Shown here: positions 8,566 through 50,208 of the stretch, in pieces
How the letters are laid out: the number at the start of each line of letters is the position of its first letter
Numbering within the stretch: the stretch's first letter is position 1
NCBI GenBank assembly: GCA_963674945.2
Contig: CAXXWQ010000002.1
Location: forward strand, 352,001 to 416,000
Reading direction: 5' to 3'
Source of the DNA: an uncultured Desulfosarcina sp.
Lineage (GTDB): Bacteria > Desulfobacterota > Desulfobacteria > Desulfobacterales > Desulfosarcinaceae
Length of the DNA: 64,000 bases
Translations under genes and position numbers: made by a program
The notes under the pieces: model-generated
The model's database searches: none
What the model was told of the DNA's origin: nothing
The model's input: only the letters and a program-made list of their open reading frames with translations

Positions 8566-10221
8566 CCTGAATCAGTGGCCTAATTTTTGCTGTTAGGATT
8601 GGCGCGGGGCGATTGCCTCACACACCATCATTTGTTGATAATTTTTCTCACTATTTTCAAATTTCGAAGGAATTTTGCTCCTGTTTCTCATTCTTTAGCC
8701 ATAGCAAATCACCAAGCAAATGCCTGTAAAATTGTTCTTTTAAAAATTATAGCTACTTCATAGCGGAAAGCAAATTCAGACGAAGATAAATCCGATCCAT
8801 CAGTTTGGAAAATGGATTGAGTTGGCCAAAGGATATGTACCATTTTCTACTTCTGGTTACTAATCGACCGGCCATATACATCAAGTCCTGCATGACTGTC
8901 CGGATTCGACGCCGGGTAACTTTCTTCCGGCGTATACCGGGCAATTCAGTCGGATCACTCTCTTCGATGCTGATTTGTCCGATAATCCGTAGCATGTTGT
9001 ACGTCAGCATCGCCAAATGAAGAATCAAGCTATTGGTGGAAAAATGACCGCTCGGCAAGCGCTCCAGGCCCATGTCGGATTTGAGTTCGGAGTGAAACTG
9101 CTCGCTGGTACCGTGATCGTGATAAAGTCGAATCACCTCATCCGGTGGCAACTGTGCGAGGCTGCACCAATAGGTATCGATCTGATACTCGGGGAACAGC
9201 AGTACTTGGCCCTTTTTGGTATGCCTTTCGGTAACCTCAAAGATGATTGGGTAGCGCAATGGATTGCCGTTGATGTCTTCAATCGTCTTTCCGATCCATA
9301 CACATTTTCCTGAGCGGCAATGCTGTTGCTTGCCGGATTTTTTTGCCAGATCAACCCACTTTTGAACAGATTCTCTACGCAAATTGCGTTTGATGATAAA
9401 GTGGACATTCTTTCGTGAATCGTCAGGAAAGTTGTCTTGACTGTCGTTTCCTGAATCCAACCTCATCAAAATAGGCTGATCGGTAATTTGCCTGGCATAA
9501 TCCAAGGTGGCGTTGATAAATTCGGGGGTGTTTTTCTGGCAGTGTTGTTTTCCTTCTCTGAACTCAAGATTCACCAGATACCCCTCGGTGCCCAGGTAGG
9601 CAAAGATCGGAGCGAAGCCATCCGTGCCTTTGTAGGTTCTGGAAACGCCTTCCTTTTGAGTCTTTGAGTTGTCAAACGGACTCACATCCATATCCAAAGG
9701 AAGGAAATCACCCGCACTGGTTTGGATGGGTGAAATCGCCGGAGCGCAGGATCGAACCAAATCAACGCCTGCATCCTTAATCAGCTTATCGGCTTGGTTG
9801 CCGATCAAATCGATTCGCTGACGCAATGTCGGGCTTGACGGGCATGCACGATTGCCAATGGCCTTGTTGAAAAATTCTTGCTTCTCACGAAAAATCTCGA
9901 TCGCATCGTAATCAGGTTTACCAATACTCATGAGAGCAATCATCGAAGCTAAAATGTCACCATGAGAAATTTTCGGGTCTACACAATGGACGCCGTTGAT
10001 CTTTTCGAAACGGAACCTGAAATTTATCGCATCAAGTAATGCGCCGATATTGATCAATCCGCTATGACTGGCAAGTTTTTCCATCTCGTGTTTTATGGTG
10101 ATCGGACGCCGCATTGATTTCACCTCCGAAGTGAGCGTTTAGTGCCCTAATATTACCATAATATATATGTTTTATCAATTGGTTATAGTGTTTTAATCAG
10201 GTTTTGTGCCACGGAAACAGG
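8566..10221 (-). mobile_element. IS1380-family insertion sequence
   Basis: Imperfect IRs CCTGAATCAGTGGC / GCCACGGAAACAGG; 5-bp TSD GAATA at 8561-8565 and 10222-10226. Confidence 0.9.
8753..10123 (-). CDS. IS1380-family DDE transposase
   Basis: LDMDVSPFDNS, MRLDSGND, YHDHGTSEQFHSELKSD motifs. Confidence 0.92.
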   Translation of the reverse strand: MKSMRRPITIKHEMEKLASHSGLINIGALLDAINFRFRFEKINGVHCVDPKISHGDILASMIALMSIGKPDYDAIEIFREKQEFFNKAIGNRACPSSPTLRQRIDLIGNQADKLIKDAGVDLVRSCAPAISPIQTSAGDFLPLDMDVSPFDNSKTQKEGVSRTYKGTDGFAPIFAYLGTEGYLVNLEFREGKQHCQKNTPEFINATLDYARQITDQPILMRLDSGNDSQDNFPDDSRKNVHFIIKRNLRRESVQKWVDLAKKSGKQQHCRSGKCVWIGKTIEDINGNPLRYPIIFEVTERHTKKGQVLLFPEYQIDTYWCSLAQLPPDEVIRLYHDHGTSEQFHSELKSDMGLERLPSGHFSTNSLILHLAMLTYNMLRIIGQISIEESDPTELPGIRRKKVTRRRIRTVMQDLMYMAGRLVTRSRKWYISFGQLNPFSKLMDRIYLRLNLLSAMK

Positions 10222-33525: not shown

Positions 33526-35091
33526 GTAACCGTTCACGGGGCATTTTAGGGCTGACATCATGGCCTTTAACCCATTGAAAACAAAGCATAAATTGTGTGC
33601 ACCGTAACTGCCTGAAATAATTTAAAATAAATCTAGATTTTTTCTTTTAACTATGTTAGAGTGCTTTTCATGGCACTCAAAAGACCATTTTCAGAACTCG
33701 ATTGGCAACTGACACCAGAGGCGGTGAGAAATTACATCCTATATCTGGAACAGGCGCTTCATGATATGCAAAAATGGGTTGAGACCCATGAAAAACGCAT
33801 AGAGAAACTTGAAGTCCAGACCAAAATGAATTCTCGTAATTCCAGTAAACCGCCCTCATCCGATCCGCCTTTTAGCAAGCAGAAAAGAAAACAGAAAAAG
33901 AGCAAGCGATCCAAAGGCGGACAAAAAGGACACAAACCGCACCAGCAACAACTGCTCGAGCCGACAAAGCAACATTCGTTGATGCCAAAATGCTGCAGTT
34001 GTGGTCATTCGGTGTTCGATCAGGAAAAGATGAAGCCTTTTTACACCCATCAACAGATCGAACTTCCCAAAATCGAAATGGAAGTCAGCCACTATATTCT
34101 GCACAAGTGCGATTGCCCCAATTGCGGGAAGGTTGTCAAAGCCAAGCTGCCATCTGCCCTGTCGAGCGGATACGGTCCCCGATTTACCGCATTTGTTGGT
34201 GAATTAAGCGGTATTAAAGGGATGAGCCGAATGGACGTAAAGCAGTTATGCGACTCTGTGTTAGACATTCCCATTGCTACGGGGACGATCCAAAAAATCG
34301 TTGACCGCACTTCAATGGCGATTTTGCCTGTGTATGAACGTATCGGGGGTATCGCCAGAAGTTTCTGGTGCAATTATATCGATGAGACCTCCTGGTTTAC
34401 AGAAAACGATCTGCACTGGCTGTGGGCCATGGTCAACGAGCGGGTTGCTTTCTATCGCATAGACCCGCATCGCTCCAAGGTGGCTTTCGAAGCACTCATC
34501 CAGGACTGGAACGGCATTCTGGTCAGCGACGGTTACGGCCTGTATCAAAAATGGGTTCACCGCCAGACGTGCCTGGCTCATCTAATCCGTAAGGCCGATT
34601 CTCTGGCGGAGAGAAAGAAGCCGGATTTACGTCGCTTCGGAGAAATCGTCGCCGCTTGGTTGAGACAACTGGTATCGTTTGCCAAAGAGCCACCCGACCC
34701 AAAGCAATGGTCGGATTTTTATACATTCTTCTTGTTTACCGTGTCCCTTTGGGAACCCGATAAAACGGATGCAGGAAAACTCGCTCGGCAGATCATCCGG
34801 GAAATGAACAACCTATGGGTGTTTATGGATCACAAGGGCGTCGATCCCACAAACAATCGTGCCGAAAGAGCGCTACGCTTTGGTGTATTGTGGCGGAAAC
34901 GAAGCCTTGGCACCCAAAGCGAGAAAGGAAACCGTTGGGTTGAGCGGATATTGTCACTGAAAGAAACCTGTCGCTTACAAGCAAAGCAGACTTTTCCTTT
35001 TCTCGTGGAGTGCATTACTTCCTATTTTCGAAATTTAGAGCCAAACCTTTCCTGGATTTAATCCAATGGGTGTTACCCTGTGAATGCGTAC
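33526..35091 (+). mobile_element. IS66-family element (single ORF, ISBst12-like organisation)
   Basis: IRs GTAACCGTTCACGGG / CCCTGTGAATGCGTAC; 8-bp TSD AATCTTTC at 33518-33525 and 35092-35099. Confidence 0.92.
33670..35061 (+). CDS. IS66-family transposase
   Basis: NSRNSSKPPSSD, GGQKGH, DETSW, SDGY, CLAHL, PTNNRAERALR. Confidence 0.92.
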   Translation: MALKRPFSELDWQLTPEAVRNYILYLEQALHDMQKWVETHEKRIEKLEVQTKMNSRNSSKPPSSDPPFSKQKRKQKKSKRSKGGQKGHKPHQQQLLEPTKQHSLMPKCCSCGHSVFDQEKMKPFYTHQQIELPKIEMEVSHYILHKCDCPNCGKVVKAKLPSALSSGYGPRFTAFVGELSGIKGMSRMDVKQLCDSVLDIPIATGTIQKIVDRTSMAILPVYERIGGIARSFWCNYIDETSWFTENDLHWLWAMVNERVAFYRIDPHRSKVAFEALIQDWNGILVSDGYGLYQKWVHRQTCLAHLIRKADSLAERKKPDLRRFGEIVAAWLRQLVSFAKEPPDPKQWSDFYTFFLFTVSLWEPDKTDAGKLARQIIREMNNLWVFMDHKGVDPTNNRAERALRFGVLWRKRSLGTQSEKGNRWVERILSLKETCRLQAKQTFPFLVECITSYFRNLEPNLSWI

Positions 35092-38142: not shown

Positions 38143-38961
38143 ATGAAGATAATCTATGCTATAATTTTTCTCTCTATTACATTTTTTACGACCTATCATG
38201 ATGTTATATACTGGATGTATAATAGATATATAAGCCCTGATTCATACTATTCTCACGCATTTTTTATCCCTTTTATCTCTGGCTTTTTAATATATAAAAA
38301 AAAGGACGAATTAATAGAGATACAGCCCGAATGCTCTTTGTTAGGACTCCTGATTATAATCCTTTCATTTGTTTTACATGTTTTGGGTACAATCTTATAT
38401 GTATTTTCAATTTCTGGTTTTTCCATATTTATCTTGTTAATAGGTATTTCGCTTTATATTTTTGGGGAAAAAATTTTTAACATAATATTTTTTCCAATCG
38501 TTTTTATGCTTTTCATGTTTCCGCTTCCGCTTGCTTTCATATCAAAACTTTCATTTCCACTAAAAATGATAGTTGCGAAGGGAGGTGTTTGGATCGCAAA
38601 ATTATGGGGATTTCCAATATTAAGAGAAGGATTTTATATTACGATTCCTGCTGGAAATCTCCTGGTAGGGAATCCTTGTAGTGGTTTAAGATCTATAATC
38701 TCATTTTTAGCGCTTGGATCTATATTTGCCTATATTATAGATACTTCAACATCTAAAAAATGGTTGATTTTTATAATATCTGTACCTATCGCGCTGCTTT
38801 CAAATATAGTTCGTATTTTCATACTTATTTTAATATCTCAATATTGGAGTATTGAGGCGGCATCTCCTGAATCTGTTTTGCATAATGCTTCTGGTATTTT
38901 TGTTTTTATTTTAGGATTGAGCTTACTTTTTTTCTTTGGGAAAATAGTTGAAAAAATATGA
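38143..38961 (+). CDS. Exosortase (EpsH family)
   Basis: YYSHAFFIP; catalytic PCSGLRS, NIVRI and LHN; multiple TM helices. Confidence 0.92.
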   Translation: MKIIYAIIFLSITFFTTYHDVIYWMYNRYISPDSYYSHAFFIPFISGFLIYKKKDELIEIQPECSLLGLLIIILSFVLHVLGTILYVFSISGFSIFILLIGISLYIFGEKIFNIIFFPIVFMLFMFPLPLAFISKLSFPLKMIVAKGGVWIAKLWGFPILREGFYITIPAGNLLVGNPCSGLRSIISFLALGSIFAYIIDTSTSKKWLIFIISVPIALLSNIVRIFILILISQYWSIEAASPESVLHNASGIFVFILGLSLLFFFGKIVEKI

Positions 38962-39599
38962 ATAAAATTATTAACAGATATTTTGTTTTAGTTGTCCTTT
39001 TTATTATAACAGGCATAATAGTTAATTATTTATCTTATGATAAAGATGCTGATTATATAGAAATTGATAAGGTGATAAATAATATTCCCTTAGATATCGG
39101 AAATTGGAAAGGAAAAGATGTCAAATTAAAAGAGCAAATTTTTAAAATACTTGAAACAAGATCTATCATTCACCGGGTTTATTACACAGATGATAGCCAA
39201 CTCTTTCTTTCTATAGTCTATTATCCGAAAACCAAAGTGGATTTTCATGCACCTGAGGGTTGCCTGGCAGGGAAGGGAATTCAGTTAAGTAAAGTGACGA
39301 AGGATTTATATATTGATTATAATAACGAAAAGTTTAAAATAAGAACCAACCAGCTGTTAAGAAAATCTGATGAAACAGATGAATTGATTTACTATTTTTA
39401 TAAAGCCGGGGATTTTGTTGGAGAAAATTACATTAAATTACGATTTGCTCTTGCTTTGAATAAATTTGGCAGCCAGAAGAAAAGTGGTTCGCTTATCAGA
39501 GTATCCACACCTATTTTTCAGAATGACGAAAGAGATTCTCATAATCGTCTTGTTGAATTCATAGAAGATTTATATCCCTTTTTAATAAAATATTTATAA
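38958..39599 (+). CDS. epsI: Exosortase-associated EpsI-family protein
   Basis: P..IGNWKG, HAPEGCL..G, GSLIRVS; adjacent to exosortase. Confidence 0.85.
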   Translation: MNKIINRYFVLVVLFIITGIIVNYLSYDKDADYIEIDKVINNIPLDIGNWKGKDVKLKEQIFKILETRSIIHRVYYTDDSQLFLSIVYYPKTKVDFHAPEGCLAGKGIQLSKVTKDLYIDYNNEKFKIRTNQLLRKSDETDELIYYFYKAGDFVGENYIKLRFALALNKFGSQKKSGSLIRVSTPIFQNDERDSHNRLVEFIEDLYPFLIKYL

Positions 39600-39607
39600 A
39601 TTTAATT

Positions 39608-41146
39608 ATGATCTTAATCACTGAAGTAAACAATAAAAAGGAACTAATAGAATCTGAAGAAAGATGGAATAGGTTTTTATTAAAAACATCTTTCACAGCA
39701 CCTTATTATTGTTATAATTGGTATTGTTCAGCTTTAAAAACAATAGATAATAATAAAACTCCGCTATTATTGTTCTTTTCATTATTTGACCAGGACATTG
39801 CTTATGCACCATTAGTATATGAGGAAAAGAAAATAATGGGCATTACTTTTTTTTATATTAGCTTTATCCAAAATGCCTATACACCTTACCAAGGTATTGT
39901 TTACTTGGATTCATTTGAAGATGTGATTTTATCTCTAATTAAATATCTGGATAGAAAGTTTCATAAAAGATATGTTATTAACTTAAATGAAATGCGGTTA
40001 AATACAACAGAAAAGAAAATCTTTAATAATCTATTGAACAAAAAAGTCATTTATATAAATAAAGAAGAGGGAGAAAATAGCAGGTATTTAAAACTAAATA
40101 ATACCTTTCATGAAACATTAAAGCTTTTAAAAAAGAAAACACAAAAAGAATTCAAGCGAAAGATAAAAAGAATTTCCGAATTAGGAAATATTAATTTAAA
40201 GCAAATAAAGGGAAAAAAACTCGTATCGGAACATTTAGAAAAATTTTTTCAGCTATATGCTCTCACTTGGAAAGGTAAAGAACCATTTCCTGAGTTCTAC
40301 TTTAATATTTGTAAGAAGTTTGGCGAATCTGGGCAACTATATTTATTTTGTTTATATGTCTGTAATAGACCTGTTGCATATTTGATTAGCATTTTATGTG
40401 GAAAAAAATTATATGGTATAAAAACAACTTATGATCCTGCATTTTGTGCATTTTCACCAGGCGTTATATTATTTTATAAGTGTATTGAAGAATTATTCTC
40501 AATTGGGGGAGTTGAGGAATTTGACATAGGAAGAGGGAACGAGCAATTTAAACGTGAATGGACGAATTTATATCATGAACAAATTAGAATGGAACTTTTC
40601 CCTTGCACTCTTTTTTGGCGACTAATAAATCAAATGCGATTTTATATATTGCCATTTTTTAAAAAGAACAAAACCTTTACTAAACTATACGATTGTTTAA
40701 GAGTTCGTACCTTGAATTCATATACCGATAATAGCAGCATATGTACAGTAAAAGAACTTTCAGTATTAAGAAAAAGGTTTGAACTATATAAACTCCCAAC
40801 ACAAATATTAATAAACGATAAAATTTCGACCAAATACGCTGTGAAGAGTGACAAATATCATTTAGCTGTCGCTATGGGTTCTAAAAATATAGATGGAATA
40901 AGTAATCGACTGGAAAACAATAAATGTGTGTTGATGATAAAAGAGTCATGGGTGGTAGGATACTTTTGGCTTTCCTATTCAGATGATAGGGATGAAAATG
41001 GAAATCATGGACCTGGAATAAACATAAATGATTGGAATATTGCAGACTATCAAAATGATAAAAGCCTTTCTGAGATATGTATTAATAAATTATGTAAATT
41101 TTTAAAAGAAAATGAACCTCAAAACTCATATTTGGTACTTTACTAA
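39608..41146 (+). CDS. GNAT-family (CelD/BcsL-like) acyltransferase
   Basis: KTTYDP..FSPGVIL, FDIGRGNEQFKREW. Confidence 0.8.
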   Translation: MILITEVNNKKELIESEERWNRFLLKTSFTAPYYCYNWYCSALKTIDNNKTPLLLFFSLFDQDIAYAPLVYEEKKIMGITFFYISFIQNAYTPYQGIVYLDSFEDVILSLIKYLDRKFHKRYVINLNEMRLNTTEKKIFNNLLNKKVIYINKEEGENSRYLKLNNTFHETLKLLKKKTQKEFKRKIKRISELGNINLKQIKGKKLVSEHLEKFFQLYALTWKGKEPFPEFYFNICKKFGESGQLYLFCLYVCNRPVAYLISILCGKKLYGIKTTYDPAFCAFSPGVILFYKCIEELFSIGGVEEFDIGRGNEQFKREWTNLYHEQIRMELFPCTLFWRLINQMRFYILPFFKKNKTFTKLYDCLRVRTLNSYTDNSSICTVKELSVLRKRFELYKLPTQILINDKISTKYAVKSDKYHLAVAMGSKNIDGISNRLENNKCVLMIKESWVVGYFWLSYSDDRDENGNHGPGININDWNIADYQNDKSLSEICINKLCKFLKENEPQNSYLVLY

Positions 41147-42582
41147 TGATCATTTTAATTCGAGTAAATAGTGAAGAAACAATTAATAATCCGCCTTTAG
41201 GATTGTTATATGTTGGTGACGCCTTGAAAAAGGCCGGGTATGATGTGAAAGTATACCATGTCTCTGAAAATGATATTCTTTCTTTTACAGAAGAAATCAT
41301 TAGCCTGAATCCTTTATGGGTTGGTTTTTCCGTAAACACGGGTTGGTCAATGAGAGCCGCATTGAGATTGACCTCCATAATCAAGGATGCAGGGATCCCC
41401 ACCGTTTGGGGAAATGCGCACGCGTCCATTTTACCTCACCAATGTTTACTGGAAGTCGCAATAGATTTTGTGGTTATTGGTGAGGGAGAGGTTACCGCAG
41501 TGGAGCTTTCCAAGGCCATAGCAAAAAAGGCTGATTATCATGATATTAAGGGAATAGGTTTTAAGGAGAGCGGTGGTCGAATTATCATTACGAAGAGCAG
41601 GGAACTGATAGAAGATCTGGATCAATATGAAATGGACTGGACACTTCTGGATCCTGATGCTTATGTCTTTGAAGCACCACAATTCGGCATGAAGCGGGCA
41701 TTCCAGTTTATTACTTCCCGTGGATGCCCACATTCATGCGGGTTTTGTTTTAATCAAGAGTTTAACCGAGGCCGCTGGCGCGCCCACTCGGAACATTTTG
41801 TTATAGATAAAGTTCTGGCATTAAAAGAGAAACTCGGACTCGACGGTATCCGTTTCTGGGATGATAATTTCTTCACAAATAGAAAACGTGCATTTCGCAT
41901 CCTCGATGCTATTGGCCTACCATATACCTCCGAGATACGTGTGGACTATTTTAATGAAGAATTTGCCAAAAAACTTTCCGCATCAGGATGCAAAATGGTA
42001 CTTTTGGGACTTGAATCGGGAAGTGATCGGATACTTAAATTAATTAATAAGAATACCACTCGGAAGGCAAACTGGGAAGCTCTCAAACTCCTAAATCGTT
42101 ATCCGCAGATATCAATCCATCCGTCTGTTATTGTAGGGTTCCCGTCTGAAACGGAAGATGAATATAAAGAGACATTAGATATGTTTGCCGAAATGATTCG
42201 TACGCATCCTAATTTTTGGTTTGTCAGATTGGGTATCTGGGTACCATATCCTGGGTGTGATCTCTATAAAAGAGCTGTTGCAGATGGAATAAAGATGCCG
42301 GCCCGGATCGAGGAGTGGGATGATTTGCTTTTCGATACATCTAAATCAAAGTCCCTTGTATGTGTGGACTGGATTGCCGATAAGAGAGACATTGAGATTG
42401 ATGAAGAATATCTGGTTATGCTAAACAAAATGGTCCATTCTCGCATCCCTTACGGACCTTTAATACATTTGTTGCATTGGAGAATAAAAAATCGTTTTTA
42501 CGGGTTTCCTGTGGAAAAGACGATATTTCATATTGTAGGCTCTTTATTAAAAGGTATCCGTAAATTAGTTTCACGTTTTTGA
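41146..42582 (+). CDS. B12-binding radical SAM enzyme
   Basis: PPLGLLY, GEGE, TSRGCPHSCGFC, DDNF, GLESGS. Confidence 0.92.
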   Translation: MIILIRVNSEETINNPPLGLLYVGDALKKAGYDVKVYHVSENDILSFTEEIISLNPLWVGFSVNTGWSMRAALRLTSIIKDAGIPTVWGNAHASILPHQCLLEVAIDFVVIGEGEVTAVELSKAIAKKADYHDIKGIGFKESGGRIIITKSRELIEDLDQYEMDWTLLDPDAYVFEAPQFGMKRAFQFITSRGCPHSCGFCFNQEFNRGRWRAHSEHFVIDKVLALKEKLGLDGIRFWDDNFFTNRKRAFRILDAIGLPYTSEIRVDYFNEEFAKKLSASGCKMVLLGLESGSDRILKLINKNTTRKANWEALKLLNRYPQISIHPSVIVGFPSETEDEYKETLDMFAEMIRTHPNFWFVRLGIWVPYPGCDLYKRAVADGIKMPARIEEWDDLLFDTSKSKSLVCVDWIADKRDIEIDEEYLVMLNKMVHSRIPYGPLIHLLHWRIKNRFYGFPVEKTIFHIVGSLLKGIRKLVSRF

Positions 42583-43121
42583 AATTATGGGAGGATATCA
42601 TGCTATGCCAATTGAAAGGTATTGAAGAAGCGCTTGTTAATTTTTCGTTTTTTGACAGACTCAAAAGAAAAATTATATATTTACTATGTTTTATAAAATC
42701 CAAAATATATAAGGAAAACAGCACCTACTCTCAAAATACTAATAACATCTCTTCGATCAAAACGCCTTCACAAAATTGTGCCAATAAAATCATCCCATTA
42801 AACCTTAGGGCTGGTGAACTTGTAAAAGTAAAGTCGGTTGAAGAGATAAAAAGAACACTTGATCAAAATAATAAATATCAAGGGCTAGCATATACGCCGG
42901 TTATGTGGAAATTCTGCGGCGGCACATATACCGTCCTCAAAAAAGTAGAACTGGTATTTGATGAGCGAAAATGGAAGTTGTCAAAGGTAAAAAATATCGT
43001 GTTGCTTGATGGCGTGTTTTGCGATGGAGTCGGTGGTATCGAAAAAGCATGGGACGGTTGTGACCGGACATGTTTTATCTGGTGGAAAGAAGGATGGTTG
43101 GAAAGGCTTCAGGATAAGTAA
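42579..43121 (+). CDS. Conserved hypothetical Cys-containing protein
   Basis: LNLRAGELVKVKS..EI..TLD, MWKFCG, C-terminal GCDRTCFIWWKEGWLER. Confidence 0.7.
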   Translation: MKLWEDIMLCQLKGIEEALVNFSFFDRLKRKIIYLLCFIKSKIYKENSTYSQNTNNISSIKTPSQNCANKIIPLNLRAGELVKVKSVEEIKRTLDQNNKYQGLAYTPVMWKFCGGTYTVLKKVELVFDERKWKLSKVKNIVLLDGVFCDGVGGIEKAWDGCDRTCFIWWKEGWLERLQDK

Positions 43122-43127
43122 AAAGGC

Positions 43128-44039
43128 ATGAGAATATTTATCCAATATAGTTTGATTTTTTTGTGTATTGTGATTGTTTCAGGATGTTCAGCTCGGAAAA
43201 AAGTTGAAAAGAATCCACTAATTGACTCAATTATTTCAGAAGTGTCGACACAGAATATTAAATCTTCAATTACCGATCTGGTTGGGTTTGAAACCCGTTA
43301 TCCATACGATAAACAGATTAAATCCGCTGAATACATTTACGAGCGCTTATACCAATACCTTGATAAAGTTAATTACCACACGTATGAATACTGGGGTGTT
43401 GAATGGAAGAATGTAGTCGGTACCATTGAAGGGAATAAATATCCGGAACAGACTATCGTTGTCTGTGCACACTTTGATACTAAATCTGAGAAGCAGCTCG
43501 TCTATGCACCTGGTGCTGATGATAATGCAAGTGGCTGCGCTGGCGTAATTGAGCTTGCCCGAATCCTTTCAAAATATTCATTCGAAAAAACATTAAAATT
43601 CATTTTCTTTTCACGAGAGTCAACAGGACAAAATGGAAGTAACGCGTATGTTAAAAGCATTAACAGGGACAAGCTAAAAATCATTGCCGCGCTCAACATG
43701 GATATGATTGCCTATGGGCCGGCTGATGAGGATATCGATCTAGTAACGCGACCAGAGTATGCATGGCTTGCTGATACTGCTTTTTCCGTGAGCCGGGCAT
43801 ATGGGTTCAACGTGCGAAAAATAGTTAAAAAACAGTGTTACTGAGGAGATGAAGCTGCCTTCTGGTCAGAAGGTTATCCGGCACTGATCCTCATCGAAGA
43901 CTATCCGATAACTGAACACAACCCGAATCGGGATACGATAAATGATATCATATCCACCCTTAATTATGATCTTGCTGGAAGATCGACGAAAGTTGCGGCT
44001 ACTATTCTATGCTATCTTGCCGGGATAACAGAAAAATGA
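43128..44039 (+). CDS. M28 peptidase-like lipoprotein with in-frame TGA (candidate selenocysteine at codon 239)
   Basis: Lipobox VSGC; CAHFD, GADDNASG, NMDMI. The frame continues past TGA 43842-43844 as GDEAAFWSEGYPALILIED..NPNRDTIND..LNYD to TGA 44039. SECIS-like hairpin at 43857-43874. Confidence 0.75.
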
Positions 44040-44055
44040 CATATTACCTCAAACT

Positions 44056-45165
44056 ATGACGACGAAAGATAATACTGTTACATTAATGGCTGTTGGCGAT
44101 ATCATGCTTTCTGAAAACAGGGGAACAGGAAAAGCTATAAATCGTCATGGGCCTGAATATCCATTTTTAAAAATTAGAGAGTATCTTCAACAAGCGGATA
44201 TTCTTTTTGGGAATCTTGAAAGTCCTATCTCAAATAATGGAACCCCTTATCAAAAGCAAGATCCACATATGACATTTCGATCAAACCCCATATCTGTAAG
44301 GGGATTATCGTATTGTGGGTTCGGTGTATTATCACTTGCAAACAATCATACCCATGATTTTGGCAATGATGCGTTCTTTAATACCTTATCTATTTTAAAT
44401 GAAAATGAAATTAAATACGTGGGGGCTGGAATTGATGCTTTAACGGCACGAAGACCCGTGATGATTGATAGTTGTGGAATAAAAGTAGCATTTATAGCTT
44501 ATTCATGCTTCCTTAACCCGGCAACAAGGATTGCAAAAAAAAAACAAGGTGGAATAGCACATTTTAGAATAAAAGATGCTATAATAAATATTCAAAATAT
44601 TCGTACTAAAGCTGACGTTATTATAGTTTCAATGCACTGGGGACTTGATTTTTTGGAATACCCTATTCCGTTTCAGATGCAATATGCACGAGAAATGATT
44701 GATAACGGGGCGCATCTTATTATTGGCCACCATCCGCACTGCCTACAAGGAGTCGAAAAATACAAAAATGGAATCATTGTGTATAGCCTTGGAGACTTTA
44801 TTTTCGATGAACCCGATCAAGATACCTGTATTTTAAAATGCGCCATTTCAAAACAGGGTATTTACGATTTTGAAATAATTCCTGCTGTAATAACGAATAA
44901 TTTTCAGACTGAGATAGCTGTTGAAGACAGAGCAGAATATATTACAAGTAAAATTCTATCTCTTTCAAAAAAATATGAATGCATGAATTCAGATATTTCA
45001 AATGATATATTGAATAGATATATCTATATTAACTTATACGTATTCAAGCTGTCTTGGAATTTGGATGTATTGAAAAATTTGGGATCTTCATTTATAATAA
45101 GAAGGATCTTTCACCATTTATTTAAAAAGGTGATCAAATTCATTTTTCCCATTCTTAAAATTTAA
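44056..45165 (+). CDS. CapA/PGA_cap-family metallophosphoesterase-like protein
   Basis: GDIM, GNLE, LANNHTHD, MHWG, GHHPH, YSLG. Confidence 0.88.
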   Translation: MTTKDNTVTLMAVGDIMLSENRGTGKAINRHGPEYPFLKIREYLQQADILFGNLESPISNNGTPYQKQDPHMTFRSNPISVRGLSYCGFGVLSLANNHTHDFGNDAFFNTLSILNENEIKYVGAGIDALTARRPVMIDSCGIKVAFIAYSCFLNPATRIAKKKQGGIAHFRIKDAIINIQNIRTKADVIIVSMHWGLDFLEYPIPFQMQYAREMIDNGAHLIIGHHPHCLQGVEKYKNGIIVYSLGDFIFDEPDQDTCILKCAISKQGIYDFEIIPAVITNNFQTEIAVEDRAEYITSKILSLSKKYECMNSDISNDILNRYIYINLYVFKLSWNLDVLKNLGSSFIIRRIFHHLFKKVIKFIFPILKI

Positions 45166-45191: not shown

Positions 45192-46367
45192 ATGAGTAAA
45201 GAAAATCCAGTTCTTATCTTAGGCCTTTATCAAGGTGGCTTAGACATTGCGCGTAGTCTTGGAAAAAAAGGAATAAAGGTTTTTGGCATTGACAATGCCG
45301 AAGAAATAATCGGATCTTTTTCAAAATGGATAACAAGGCTTCATGCGCCTAAAAAGAATGAAGAACTCAGGGATTATTTAATTGAGTTCTCAAAAAGGTG
45401 CAACTCGAAACCAGTGTTGTATACAACAAGTGATACTTACCTTGTACTGGTTTTAAAATATCATGATATATTGTCGAAATATTTTTGTTATCCTGATAAT
45501 TTTAATGTCGCAAAAAAACTTGTATCCAAAGTTGAAACAGCGAAGCTTTTTCAATATTTAAAAATAAATTGTCCTAAAACATATATTATAAAAAAGGGTT
45601 TTCAATCAATTCCGCAAATAAACGATATTAAATTTCCAGTCATATTAAAACCTGATTATCATGATCTTTGGCAGGAGGAAAAAAGCATAGTAGAGTATAT
45701 AGGTCGGGGGCAACGTGTTAAGATAATAAAAGATGGGAACGAACTTGAATCGGCTGTAAATATGCTGGGTTCGTTTAGTGATATGGTTCTTCAGGAGTGG
45801 ATACCAGGCCCCAGTAAGAATAGTTTTTACTATACTGGTTATAGATCTGAAAATAGTAGAACTACGATAGCATGTGTAGGACAAAAAATAAAAACGTATC
45901 CCAATGGTACGGGGTCGGAAGTTCTTTTGACAGCAGTTAACATTCCTGAGATTAAAAAACAGGGAAATGAGATTCTTGATAATCTTAATTATATAGGTCA
46001 TGCCGGGATCGATTTTAAATACGATGATTACGATAAGAGTTTTAATGTAATTGAAATAAACAGTCGTTTTGGAATTAATGACGGATTTTGTGTCGACTTT
46101 CCATATATATATTATCAAGATATGCTGGGAGTACTCACAGAACAGCAATGCAATTATCCTGACGGCATTACATGGTGTGATTTTGAGAAAAACATCGAGT
46201 GGATAATAGAATATGGGAAAATGAAAGATATATTTACCTTTTTTATATCAATGTTGAAAGGTTATGATAAATATGCATTGTTTGATTGGAAAGACATGAA
46301 TCCTTCAATGAAAGAATGGAAGAGTTTCTGTATAAGAGTTATTAAATATACTGGGGTATGCACTTGA
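45192..46367 (+). CDS. ATP-grasp carboxylate-amine ligase; last codons replaced by IS1595 sequence
   Basis: IARSLG, FPVILKP, LQEWIPG, IDFKYD, IEINSR. The reconstructed pre-insertion end is IKYILKS-stop. Confidence 0.82.
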   Translation: MSKENPVLILGLYQGGLDIARSLGKKGIKVFGIDNAEEIIGSFSKWITRLHAPKKNEELRDYLIEFSKRCNSKPVLYTTSDTYLVLVLKYHDILSKYFCYPDNFNVAKKLVSKVETAKLFQYLKINCPKTYIIKKGFQSIPQINDIKFPVILKPDYHDLWQEEKSIVEYIGRGQRVKIIKDGNELESAVNMLGSFSDMVLQEWIPGPSKNSFYYTGYRSENSRTTIACVGQKIKTYPNGTGSEVLLTAVNIPEIKKQGNEILDNLNYIGHAGIDFKYDDYDKSFNVIEINSRFGINDGFCVDFPYIYYQDMLGVLTEQQCNYPDGITWCDFEKNIEWIIEYGKMKDIFTFFISMLKGYDKYALFDWKDMNPSMKEWKSFCIRVIKYTGVCT

Positions 46368-47398
46368 CTCCAGTGGCCACAACATATAGTGTACCAGTCT
46401 ATGGAGGAAGATTACCCCAGAACGTTGATAGAATTTGAAAAACGATTTAGCTCTGAAGCTGGATGCACTGACTATTTGATGGCTCTTAGATGGCCCGAAG
46501 GCTTCCGTTGCCCTCATTGCGGTTCTGCATCCTCGTGGAGAACTAAACGATCCCAGTTTCATTGTACTGATTGTGGAAATCAATCTACGATAACTTCCGG
46601 TACAATTTTTCACGGCACCAGAAAGCCCTTGTCTCTTTGGTTTCGGGCTATGTGGCACATTACAGGTCAGAAGTACGGAGCTAATGCACTTGGGCTTCAG
46701 AGAGTACTTAACCTTGGGAGTTATAATACCGCCTGGCAATGGCTCCATAAACTTCGAAGAGCAATGGTTCGTCCAGGACGTGACCGATTGTCCGGGATTG
46801 TTGAAGTTGATGAAACCTATGTCGGTGGGAAAAAGTCTGGAAAACGCGGTCGGGGTGCTGAAGGTAAAGCTTTGGTCGGTATTGCCGTGGAGGATAAAGG
46901 CCGAAAAGGAATTGGGCGAATTAGACTCTGGCACCTCGAAGACGCATCGGGAGATAGTCTGACTCAATTTGTACAAGAAATCGCCCAGCCAGGCAGCACC
47001 ATCAGGACGGATGATTGGCCCGGCTATAGCAGCCTTGGCGATAAAGGATTTAAGCATATTGCGATTCCATCGCATGACTTGAAGATTGTACATTTGGTAG
47101 CGTCGCTCATGAAACGATGGTTACTTGGTACTTATCAAGGGGCGGTCAGACCGTCTCATTTGATGTACTATTTGGATGAATTCACATTCAGGTTCAACCG
47201 TAGAACATCAGTGTCTCGCGGAAAACTATTTTACAGGCTGGTCCAACAGGCCGTGATGGTGGACCCTGCCCCAGCTAGTACTCTTAAAGGTGCATCGTTA
47301 CCGTTTTTGGAAGGGGCAGCAAATTTAAATCTCGATCCAATTGACGATGACCTGGGCCACAACATATAGTATGTGCTGGATTTAAGTGCATACCCCAG
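46351..47398 (+). mobile_element. IS1595-family insertion sequence
   Basis: Perfect IR CTGGGGTATGCACTT / AAGTGCATACCCCAG; direct repeat TTAAATATA at 46342-46350 and 47399-47407. Confidence 0.92.
46401..47369 (+). CDS. IS1595-family transposase
   Basis: Zn ribbon CPHC/CTDC, VEVDETYVGG, TD, YLDEFTFRFNRR. Confidence 0.92.
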   Translation: MEEDYPRTLIEFEKRFSSEAGCTDYLMALRWPEGFRCPHCGSASSWRTKRSQFHCTDCGNQSTITSGTIFHGTRKPLSLWFRAMWHITGQKYGANALGLQRVLNLGSYNTAWQWLHKLRRAMVRPGRDRLSGIVEVDETYVGGKKSGKRGRGAEGKALVGIAVEDKGRKGIGRIRLWHLEDASGDSLTQFVQEIAQPGSTIRTDDWPGYSSLGDKGFKHIAIPSHDLKIVHLVASLMKRWLLGTYQGAVRPSHLMYYLDEFTFRFNRRTSVSRGKLFYRLVQQAVMVDPAPASTLKGASLPFLEGAANLNLDPIDDDLGHNI

Positions 47399-48309: not shown

Positions 48310-50208
48310 CGTACATTCCGCACCCTTTTTCGAGGCTCTCTGTTCATTTTTTTTACTTTTACGGATTGAAAAATACTTCCGGACTGACGTTCAGCGCCGT
48401 TAGAAATTCAAGCTGAACAGTCCTTAGCGGTTTTACCAATTGTCTTCGTTTTCCTGATTTTGCTACCAGAATGCTTAAGAACTTCGTCGTCATCATAAAA
48501 GAGGTCGGACGCTTGGTTGGGCGGTTTTTCCATCCGGTGATTTCGCTTTCCGTTTTTTCTAAATGAAGCCGCATGCAGCGTTCCATCAAACGCCAAATGA
48601 GAAGTGCAATGAGCAGCACCAACCCGAGCACCTCAATACGGTTCGGCTTTTTCAAAAAGATGCTGTTGACGATAACCGGATCTTTCAAGAATCCAAAGTT
48701 TTGCTCGATGCCGCTCTGGTTTTTGTATAACGTTAAAAGGGTGACGGCAGGCCATTGGTACAACTCCTGTTGGCCGGACAGGTTGGATAGTAATACAAAG
48801 CATCCGGCTTCAAGACGTAGGGGCGCGACGGCATCCGCATCCACATCGATCTCTACATCGAGAAGATATTCATAACCGATTGGCGTGCGTGTTTTCCCTT
48901 TGGCGGGCCGTCCCCTGGGATATTTGGGCTCTTCTTTGATTTCATATTGTAGCTTGTGATAGCTGCGCTCAGCGGCTTTTTGGATTTTTTCGGCTGCCGC
49001 CTCGGCATCCGCCAGACAATAAAAAGGGCCTGCGTTGATTTTTTTGCAGTTTGTTTCAAGCTCCTTGCGTTTTTGCCCAAGCAATCGATCGATCAATACG
49101 CTTATGGCGCCTTTTATCATGCGCGGAGGAGTGAATAACGATAGCGCGGTACGTTTCATCGTACAGCTCAACGGTGGTTTCAAAGCCACGGTAATACGCT
49201 GCGGGACGTTTTTTCGTGGCCGGCGTTTCATTGAGTTTGCCCAAATCGATCCAGTTATCGGCGGCTACAGCATCAAAAATGGCACGGCCGCACTCCTTGT
49301 AGGTGGCCGGTAGCCGTGTCAGAAATTTTACATTTTTCTCTTTCGCTTTCACCAGATTGTCAGGCGTGACAAAGGCCGAGTCCGCGACATAAACGAAAGC
49401 CCCTGGTTCGAGACCGTGTCGGGCCATGTGCCGGGAGACACCTGCCAACAGTTCGTTGTTCAACGTCTTGTCCGATGCGTTACCGTCCTCGCATGTCCCC
49501 AAAATGGGAATATTGCGATCCACGCACAGCATCGAAACGAGAAACTGTTTCAGATCGGGTCGCTTGTCTTTGCTATGGCCATACGTGATCTTCAGCGGAG
49601 GATCGCTAAAATCATAATCCCCGAAAACGCTGATGGAGGTGGTATCAAAATGCAAACGACGGGGATCGATGTCAAAGATGCCAATCGCGTTTTGCGCAAT
49701 CTGTGAGAACACCTTTTGCGTACCGGTGTCGAATATCTTGTCCAGCACGCGGCCCAGATTGTAGTCACAGAAAAGTTCCGGTTCGACATCGTGGCCCAAA
49801 ATCAATTCGGCATCCTTTTCCTGGAAAAATTCTTCAAGCCGGTACAAAGGGGTTCTTCCCGAAAGTGTATCCAACACCATGGCCAGAACAGCGATTCCCG
49901 GTGAAAGTTCCATTTCACTGTCGACCATGGCGTCCAATGTTTCAACCAGCTTGATCTTTTTGGCAAAGTCTTTGATGATCGGTAGGTGGCCGACCTCGGA
50001 GAACGTCAGATTTTCAGGAACCAGATTGTCCATTTTGTCCTCTCAGCGTTTGAGTTGAAGCCTGTGAGGACATAACTACCAGAAATTACTATCAATGTCT
50101 ATGCATAAATTATTTCTTGTTATATCAATATGTAAAATATTTTATCCTCTTGGAGTTATTACAAAATAAATTCATCTGGAATCGTCTAAAAATGGTGTCG
50201 AAAGTAAG
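48310..50208 (-). mobile_element. IS1634-family insertion sequence
   Basis: IRs CGTACATTCCGCACC / GGTGTCGAAAGTAAG; 6-bp TSD ATTTAA at 48304-48309 and 50209-50214. Confidence 0.9.
48359..50033 (-). pseudogene. IS1634 transposase frameshifted by a 4-bp duplication
   Basis: HFDTTS, GHSKDKRPDLKQ, VADSA in 50033-49056; YKNQSGIEQNFGFLKDP in the other frame; junction ATCGATCGATC at ~49084-49094. Confidence 0.85.

Follow-up and report, generated by a model that had tools for sequence, protein, structure and literature searches.

The locus analysed here raises a question of decoding and, with it, one of function: whether a TGA triplet in an otherwise open frame ends a short protein or is read as selenocysteine (Sec), and what such a residue would do in a protein of the M28 peptidase fold. 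The window, a 64,000-nt stretch of genomic DNA, holds an ATG at 43128 followed by 238 codons, an in-frame TGA at 43842-43844, 64 further open codons and a terminal TGA at 44037-44039; 16 nt separate this end from the ATG of the next gene (44056), which lies in a different frame. Re-derivation of these coordinates reproduces the 64-codon extension and the 16-nt gap given in an earlier note on this DNA. The Sec read-through proposed there is strongly supported by the conserved TGA, the conserved downstream frame, the hairpins, the Cys homologs and the sel genes of the host. We regard recoding of the triplet as virtually certain and, judging from sequence comparison, put the probability that it is read mainly as Sec at about nine in ten.

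The read-through protein matches the Pfam M28 family (PF04389) over residues 95-292, covering profile positions 1-191 of 193, with a score of 110.3 bits against a cut-off of 21.3; together with a fold resembling that of the Vibrio aminopeptidase, this bears out the M28 assignment made earlier. Between the UGA and the end of the read-through frame there is no in-frame ATG, GTG or TTG, and the tail was accordingly rejected as a separate downstream gene. Contigs of runs X1, X2 and X3 span the TGA with no alternative letters, X1 and X2 being a single sample, possibly the origin of this DNA; since all three read TGA, the triplet is not an assembly error. A separate X1/X2 contig matches the window at 43841-43873 only, the 33 nt of UGA plus hairpin. 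Beyond this stretch it reads on into a further C-x-U-G-D-E gene, which makes it a second member of the family in that sample; its DNA is most alike over the recoding signal. Across the host genome, a further open stretch of at least 60 codons and a hairpin of this kind follow 45 of the 2867 long frames that end in TGA; with TAA as the stop the count is 24 of 2118, and with TAG 14 of 1434. The features of the window alone are weak, and on the alignments it is conservation across species that lifts the observation above chance.

Table 1. Coordinates of the features discussed; positions are those of the window, or of host genome G000 where a contig (C1, C3, C4) is named.
Position	Strand	Feature	Basis
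8753-10123, 33661-35061, 46389-47369, 48359-50033		Transposase genes interrupting the island	Two by Pfam (DDE_Tnp_1_4, IS66), two judged from translations, the last in two overlapping frames
38143..39599	+	Exosortase and EpsI genes, markers of a PEP-CTERM-type exopolysaccharide locus	Pfam/NCBIfam
39608..41146	+	Acetyltransf_6 GNAT gene	
41146..42582	+	B12-binding radical SAM gene	
42579..43121	+	180-aa protein, no Pfam/NCBIfam family, upstream	
43128..44039	+	Read-through CDS, M28-fold (seleno)lipoprotein, 303 aa	ORF, Pfam, alignment, model
43128..43187	+	Probable signal peptide with lipobox V-S-G-C20	Sequence pattern, by eye
43470..43472	+	His115 = AAP His97, metal site 1, kept	Alignment
43521..43523	+	Asp132 = AAP Asp117, bridging ligand, site 2, kept	Alignment
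43617..43622	+	Glu164 = AAP Glu151, kept; Ser165 = AAP Glu152, site 3, lost	Alignment
43701..43703	+	Asp192 = AAP Asp179, site 4, kept	Alignment
43836..43838	+	Cys237 of the C-x-U motif	Cys in 61/62 database proteins ending here and in 16/16 TGA loci
43842..43844	+	Recoded UGA, predicted Sec239, aligned to AAP Cys227	TGA-locus alignment, database protein ends, AAP alignment
43857..43874	+	bSECIS-type hairpin, 7-bp stem, GGUC loop at 43864-43867	19 nt after UGA
43932..43934	+	Asp269, replacing AAP His256, site 5	Alignment
44056..45165	+	CapA/PGA_cap family gene, next downstream	
45192..46367	+	ATP-grasp-like gene; homologs beside L014 and L093	Weak Pfam match
G000:C3:572702-572793	-	Second UCA tRNA (L007)	
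G000:C3:570739-572658	-	Second selB (L003)	
C1:209660-211018		Second cysS	Matches nearly full model
G000:C4:690457-691728(-), 686998-688269(-), 2158796-2160040(+), 655749-657008(-); C3:263005-264261(-)		URO-D-like copies (L205, L206, L208)	
G000:C3:2604395-2606839	+	Glycyl radical enzyme, PFL2/3-like (L207)	One in-frame TGA, at codon 347; open stretch of 815 codons

A protein search with the read-through query yields 47 near-full-length clusters at 46-63% identity, all of which stop at the codon before U; their last two residues are C-Y in 35, C-F in 8, C-H in 2, and C-A and V-Y in one each. Of 440 fetched proteins, 62 terminate at this codon, and 61 of these have Cys two residues before U. 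At the DNA level, TGA occupies the Sec column in 10 of 164 anchored loci and in 6 of 29 further ones, 16 of 193 in all (one additional locus without an anchor lies outside the 164); these 16 are not independent, as one is the window itself, six come from one genus and five match database proteins already counted. All 16 encode C-x-U-G-D-E, at 30-61% identity to the window protein where measured, and in the first ten the frame stays open for 57-121 codons past the UGA. The TGA and its companion Cys are thereby conserved among homologs, which the earlier note had named as a check on its proposal. Beyond the hairpin, identity to locus L093 at the first, second and third codon positions is 0.66, 0.85 and 0.28, a pattern like that of the upstream part; on this sequence evidence the downstream frame is under purifying selection. 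The scan of genome contigs recovered homologous loci with an alignment as query and none with a single sequence. Four TGA and one TAG matches in the phylum search fell off the Sec column, at natural C-termini or upstream, and were left out of the counts.

The remaining 154 outgroup loci all lack Cys at the Sec column and carry Tyr, Ala, Trp, Arg or other residues before [SGD]-D-[HQN]. Three full-length Cys homologs (P0124, P0129 and P0170) read C-G-C-G-D-E; none was seen in the protein search inside the close subclade in which metal-site His has become Asp. Longer fused forms with C-x-C-G-D-E are absent from the best 120 matches, all of them outgroup-like multi-domain M28 proteins, which is weak evidence. 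In a quick IQ-TREE phylogeny of 57 hand-chosen rows, with the motif columns left in, the Sec/Cys family separates as a single clade from the 20 rows of the outgroup (SH-aLRT 99). Within it the Asp forms cluster (94), the two Cys forms included fall separately among the Sec forms, and the C-G-U loci L156 and L174-L179 join the clade of the window gene, itself part of a subclade that has C-[YF]-U and the change of His256 to Asp. In one distant member (genome G017, L009:876-1241) the frame past the UGA encodes a C-terminal extension with repeats that resemble dockerin or EF-hand repeats by eye.

It is extremely improbable that the UGA is instead a true stop, with the protein truncated or the gene a pseudogene, or that it stems from misassembly or encodes Trp. 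Databases all call the 238-aa form, and one MAG with the TGA (G302, completeness not given, which carries L014 on a 2.1-kb contig) yielded no selA, selB, selD or tRNA-Sec; its one tRNA candidate for the latter was rejected as a tRNA-Ser. A true stop, however, would have to recur as the same TGA across 30-61% identity ahead of a conserved frame, and truncation there would remove metal site 5 and the last helix. Agreement of the contigs speaks against an assembly error. As for Trp, TGG does occur here in 15 of the 154 outgroup loci, but always in a W-S-D-H context without the Cys; the host has a tRNA-Trp(CCA), and the gene's own end is TGA. The Trp reading was rejected on the confinement of TGG to these outgroup loci, and the situation that the earlier note had said would overturn its proposal, Trp in homologs with TGA unique to this assembly, is not the one observed.

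Sec insertion would be achieved by SelB bound to a hairpin downstream of the UGA and delivering Sec-tRNA to codon 239. The hairpin G-CCTTCT/GGTC/AGAAGG-T had been reported to have its loop starting 20 nt after the UGA, and it does, as 19 nt intervene and the loop begins at the 20th. We tested it with our own implementation of the bSECIS rules in section 5 of PMC13188914: a loop of 3-9 nt, G in the first two loop positions, a spacing of 16-37 nt and an MFE of at most -7.5 kcal/mol. The window hairpin satisfies every rule, as do the hairpins of all 16 TGA loci, in which 18-19 nt separate loop and UGA; of the 154 outgroup loci 28 pass, 13 of these at a spacing of 17-22. The bSECIS prediction suggested earlier is thereby borne out, and the hairpin is kept across loci. 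In loop, G position, spacing and MFE the window hairpin agrees with the bacterial consensus of the E. coli fdhF type, from which it differs in a short stem that is partly dictated by the F-W-x-x-G codons. Its fold has a z of -1.0 against dinucleotide shuffles, and 19% of synonymous recodings fold as well; the real hairpin is among the best 5% of synonymous recodings at 5 of 10 loci, the window not being one of them. The rules are also passed by 16-61% of synonymous recodings because the F-W-x-x-G codons favour the stem. In an alignment without gaps 84% of cells are paired, a fraction also reached by 25 of 500 shuffles; the covariation signal is modest. The window hairpin alone is not significant, and conservation carries the case; support for a SECIS element from these comparisons is real but modest. 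Hairpin loops lie at 18-23 nt in the selD and fdhA-like genes of the host.

The host genome encodes selA, two selB genes, a selD with its own in-frame TGA, and tRNA-Sec, so that selA, selB, selC and selD, named for checking in the earlier note, are all present. Among nine other genomes with the TGA form, six of them of one genus, selA occurs in eight, selB in seven and selD in eight. The host has two UCA tRNAs in total. The second has U73 and an A1:U72 pair and lies directly upstream of the second selB, the arrangement described for selC*/selB* in the part of PMC5389517 consulted. A SelC*/SelB*-like tRNA of this kind could insert Cys at UGA, a live side route by analogy. It is possible, though we think it unlikely, that a tRNA-Cys(UCA) of the SelC* type, acting with the second SelB, lets the host translate this UGA, in part at least, as Cys, for example under selenium shortage. 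Such a reading is compatible with Sec insertion, and the existence of Cys homologs favours it along with the tRNA. Against it, no cysS* was found beside the second selB, and the second cysS, close to the full model, is on another contig; most other TGA genomes have one full selB; and the host has a normal tRNA-Sec and selA. We retain Sec as the main product of decoding.

Other host genes also have in-frame TGA codons. A family resembling URO-D (weak PF01208 match) has 15 host paralogs that carry, in the same column, TGA in five, Cys in nine and Ser in one, with a GUU-loop hairpin 20 nt downstream in four of the five TGA copies; it is a strong candidate for a further selenoprotein family and is absent from the 119-family table of PMC13188914. 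In the glycyl radical enzyme L207 the TGA may have arisen by nonsense mutation or may mark a new Sec site: its hairpin passes the SECIS rules, and nine paralogs lack Cys at that column.

What the residue does depends on the protein that bears it. Behind a hydrophobic N-terminal stretch the product has Cys20, shared by at least 90% of the 48 sequences aligned; it is probably a lipoprotein anchored by this residue and would face out of the cytoplasm. Its predicted model (pLDDT 95.9) finds its best fold match in the Vibrio proteolyticus aminopeptidase (AAP, also of Aeromonas proteolytica; family M28; PDB 1amp and 3b3v), with a TM of 0.81 and, against 1amp, Z 36.9 and an rmsd of 2.5 over 274 residues at 23% identity; the ESM Atlas returns generic M28 clusters only. 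The window protein shares with AAP the fold, the counterparts of His97, Asp117, Glu151 and Asp179, and, by prediction, export; it differs in having Sec for Cys, C-x-U for C-x-x-x-C, G-D-E for S228-D-H, Ser for Glu152 and Asp for His256, and in being a probable lipoprotein encoded in an exopolysaccharide locus. By alignment, and with the ligand table in the part of PMC7522609 consulted, two of the five AAP ligands (His97, Asp117, Glu152, Asp179 and His256) are altered.

His115, Asp132, Glu164 and Asp192 are invariant among the aligned family sequences, and Glu164 is the counterpart of AAP Glu151, which we take to be the general base. At site 5, Asp is found in the seven closest TGA loci (7/7 of the subclade) and His in the other 9 of 16. 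At site 3, Ser is found in 7 of 47 close proteins, and Glu-Glu in 154 of 154 outgroup loci. Members with His at site 5 keep all five ligands; since Sec also occurs with the full set, it did not arise to replace lost ligands, and we infer that the ligand change came after Sec, within the His-to-Asp subclade. From the sequences, a plain two-zinc aminopeptidase is doubtful for this subclade, whose metal site has been remodelled. The Cys form P0129 has Glu at site 5, a second and separate loss of the His.

U239 aligns with AAP Cys227, as the earlier note had held in placing the UGA at the Vibrio Cys before S-D-H. The analogy stands for this position and fails for the partner: Cys237 falls on Tyr225, giving CxU in place of CxxxC; AAP Cys223 aligns with a residue other than Cys; and Ser228-Asp-His has become Gly-Asp-Glu. 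More broadly, the earlier reading was sound on Sec and had missed the altered metal site, the exopolysaccharide context and the second UCA tRNA.

The alignment with Cys227 invites a structural explanation, the version of the earlier note with its possible Cys-Sec bond, in which a Cys237-Sec239 bridge would stiffen the active-site loop of an ordinary exported aminopeptidase as the Cys223-Cys227 disulfide does in Vibrio. That disulfide stabilises the AAP loop, which corresponds to DapE loop V overhanging the dinuclear active site, according to the part of PMC4012986 consulted. Export of the protein, although itself predicted, and retention of the site-5 His in 9 of 16 TGA loci agree with such a role. 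The spacing is nevertheless i,i+2 and not i,i+4, no Cys stands at this column in any of the 154 outgroup loci, and S-D-H is replaced by G-D-E in every member. Loss of His256 throughout the subclade and of Glu152 in some of the close proteins, against the uniform Glu-Glu of the outgroup, also fits poorly with an ordinary aminopeptidase. Sec is generally retained for chemistry, which we count against a structural role, and we consider such a role unlikely, if a serious contender. That Sec is chemically active rather than structural we hold to be slightly better than an even bet.

A further reading, which we think improbable, takes the M28 fold as a scaffold at the cell surface for a binding or redox module, non-catalytic or with a single metal, in which C-x-U would serve for thiol/selenol redox reactions or for binding metal. 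Two of the five ligands are indeed altered in the window protein, the transferrin receptor, a non-catalytic M28 fold, is among the fold matches, and most selenoproteins catalogued in the part of PMC13188914 consulted are redox proteins; yet His115, Asp132, Glu164 and Asp192 do not vary, Asp too is a metal ligand, and the members with site-5 His retain all five. M28-type glutaminyl cyclases and GPAA1, the one-zinc or synthetase members of the family, put the M28 fold to amide chemistry other than that of an aminopeptidase. With zinc at sites 2, 3 and 5 (Table 1 of PMC7522609), they are the mirror image of the window protein, in which sites 3 and 5 are altered (Ser, Asp) and 1, 2 and 4 kept; by alignment, the single-zinc set of the glutaminyl cyclases (Asp, Glu and His at sites 2, 3 and 5) is not the one it carries. 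We found no report of Sec in M28 glutaminyl cyclases or GPAA1.

The genomic setting bears on the substrate. The gene lies in a Wzy/exosortase exopolysaccharide island (window 1252-63039) of low GC content, which is 33.8% at 36-46 kb while the genome as a whole has 51.2%. The island includes an asparagine-synthase-like amidotransferase, several GNATs, two CapA-family genes, an ATP-grasp-like gene, a sulfotransferase and an FAD oxidoreductase, a content that suggests a polymer decorated with an amino acid or amide. Of the 15 other TGA loci, searched over 46 kb of flanking DNA with 20 window proteins as baits, 9 have at least one match; of 177 outgroup loci, covering 1.24 Mb, 2 have one. The neighbours in common are Acetyltransf_6 GNATs (5 loci), the 180-aa protein (3), ATP-grasp-like (2) and DegT-like (2) proteins, and polysaccharide deacetylase and Wzy genes flank other TGA loci; the sharing is partly due to kinship. 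The 180-aa protein has a Cys-rich C-terminal half, is 47% identical to the gene at the same position in L093, has homologs in L096 and L177, and matches unnamed clusters only in the ESM Atlas. The M28 gene itself is patchy, occurring in none of seven same-genus genomes and in 2 of 401 genomes of the class searched, the host counted, a distribution that fits transfer with the island.

In the mechanism we propose, the Cys-x-Sec pair would sit on a loop overhanging the M28 metal site and take part in chemistry there as a selenolate nucleophile, a metal ligand or a redox switch. We picture the enzyme as a metal-dependent amidohydrolase or acyl-transferase acting to modify amino-acyl or amide groups, either of the exopolysaccharide or of the PEP-CTERM surface layer that the neighbouring genes produce, and with its second metal site rebuilt in this subclade (His to Asp, and Glu often to Ser). 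A role in tailoring a surface polymer outside the cytoplasm is the candidate function we favour, with reasonable if limited confidence. The full proposal, a selenium-dependent metallo-amidohydrolase or acyl-transferase using Sec239, paired with Cys237, as nucleophile or metal ligand at an M28 site with a rebuilt second metal pocket to edit amino-acyl or amide groups of exopolysaccharide or PEP-CTERM proteins, is tentative and in all its particulars rather doubtful. If true, it would tie selenium to the biosynthesis of cell-surface polymers and place non-redox Sec chemistry in a peptidase fold.

Catalogued selenoproteins with C-x-U, namely UshA-like (NF041198), rhodanese form 3 (NF041203), ferredoxin-thioredoxin reductase (NF041072) and thioredoxin-like Sec.1, share with the window protein this motif and a prediction by comparative genomics, as listed in the part of PMC13188914 consulted, and differ from it in domain family. 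The 119 entries in Table 1 of this 2026 catalogue, in which the families of Haft and Tolstoy 2025 appear, include no peptidase family, whether M28, M20 or another, and no M28 or peptidase selenoprotein is mentioned in its sections 5 and 6 or the part of section 7 consulted. Term searches found no peptidase family in the BSepDB main text, as far as available, or in the deep-Sep main text and four supplements. No selenoprotein model of NCBIfam 20.0 scores above its cut-off for the window protein, which matches two aminopeptidase models only, both below cut-off. Literature searches for such an M28 selenoprotein returned nothing on point, though the candidates of Deng et al. 2026 could include it.

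The locus very probably belongs to a conserved, apparently uncatalogued selenoprotein family of the M28 fold, with at least 62 database clusters wrongly annotated as truncated proteins. The family would be an addition to a catalogue of 119 prokaryotic families (PMC13188914) that is mostly redox and has no peptidase fold. New from this locus are the His-to-Asp subclade and the link to exopolysaccharide: Sec would be placed beside a metal centre with changed ligands, and selenium use would be linked to mobile exopolysaccharide loci. With natural Sec, Cys, His-site and Asp-site versions of a small single-domain protein at hand, the family makes a role of Sec outside redox catalysis directly testable.
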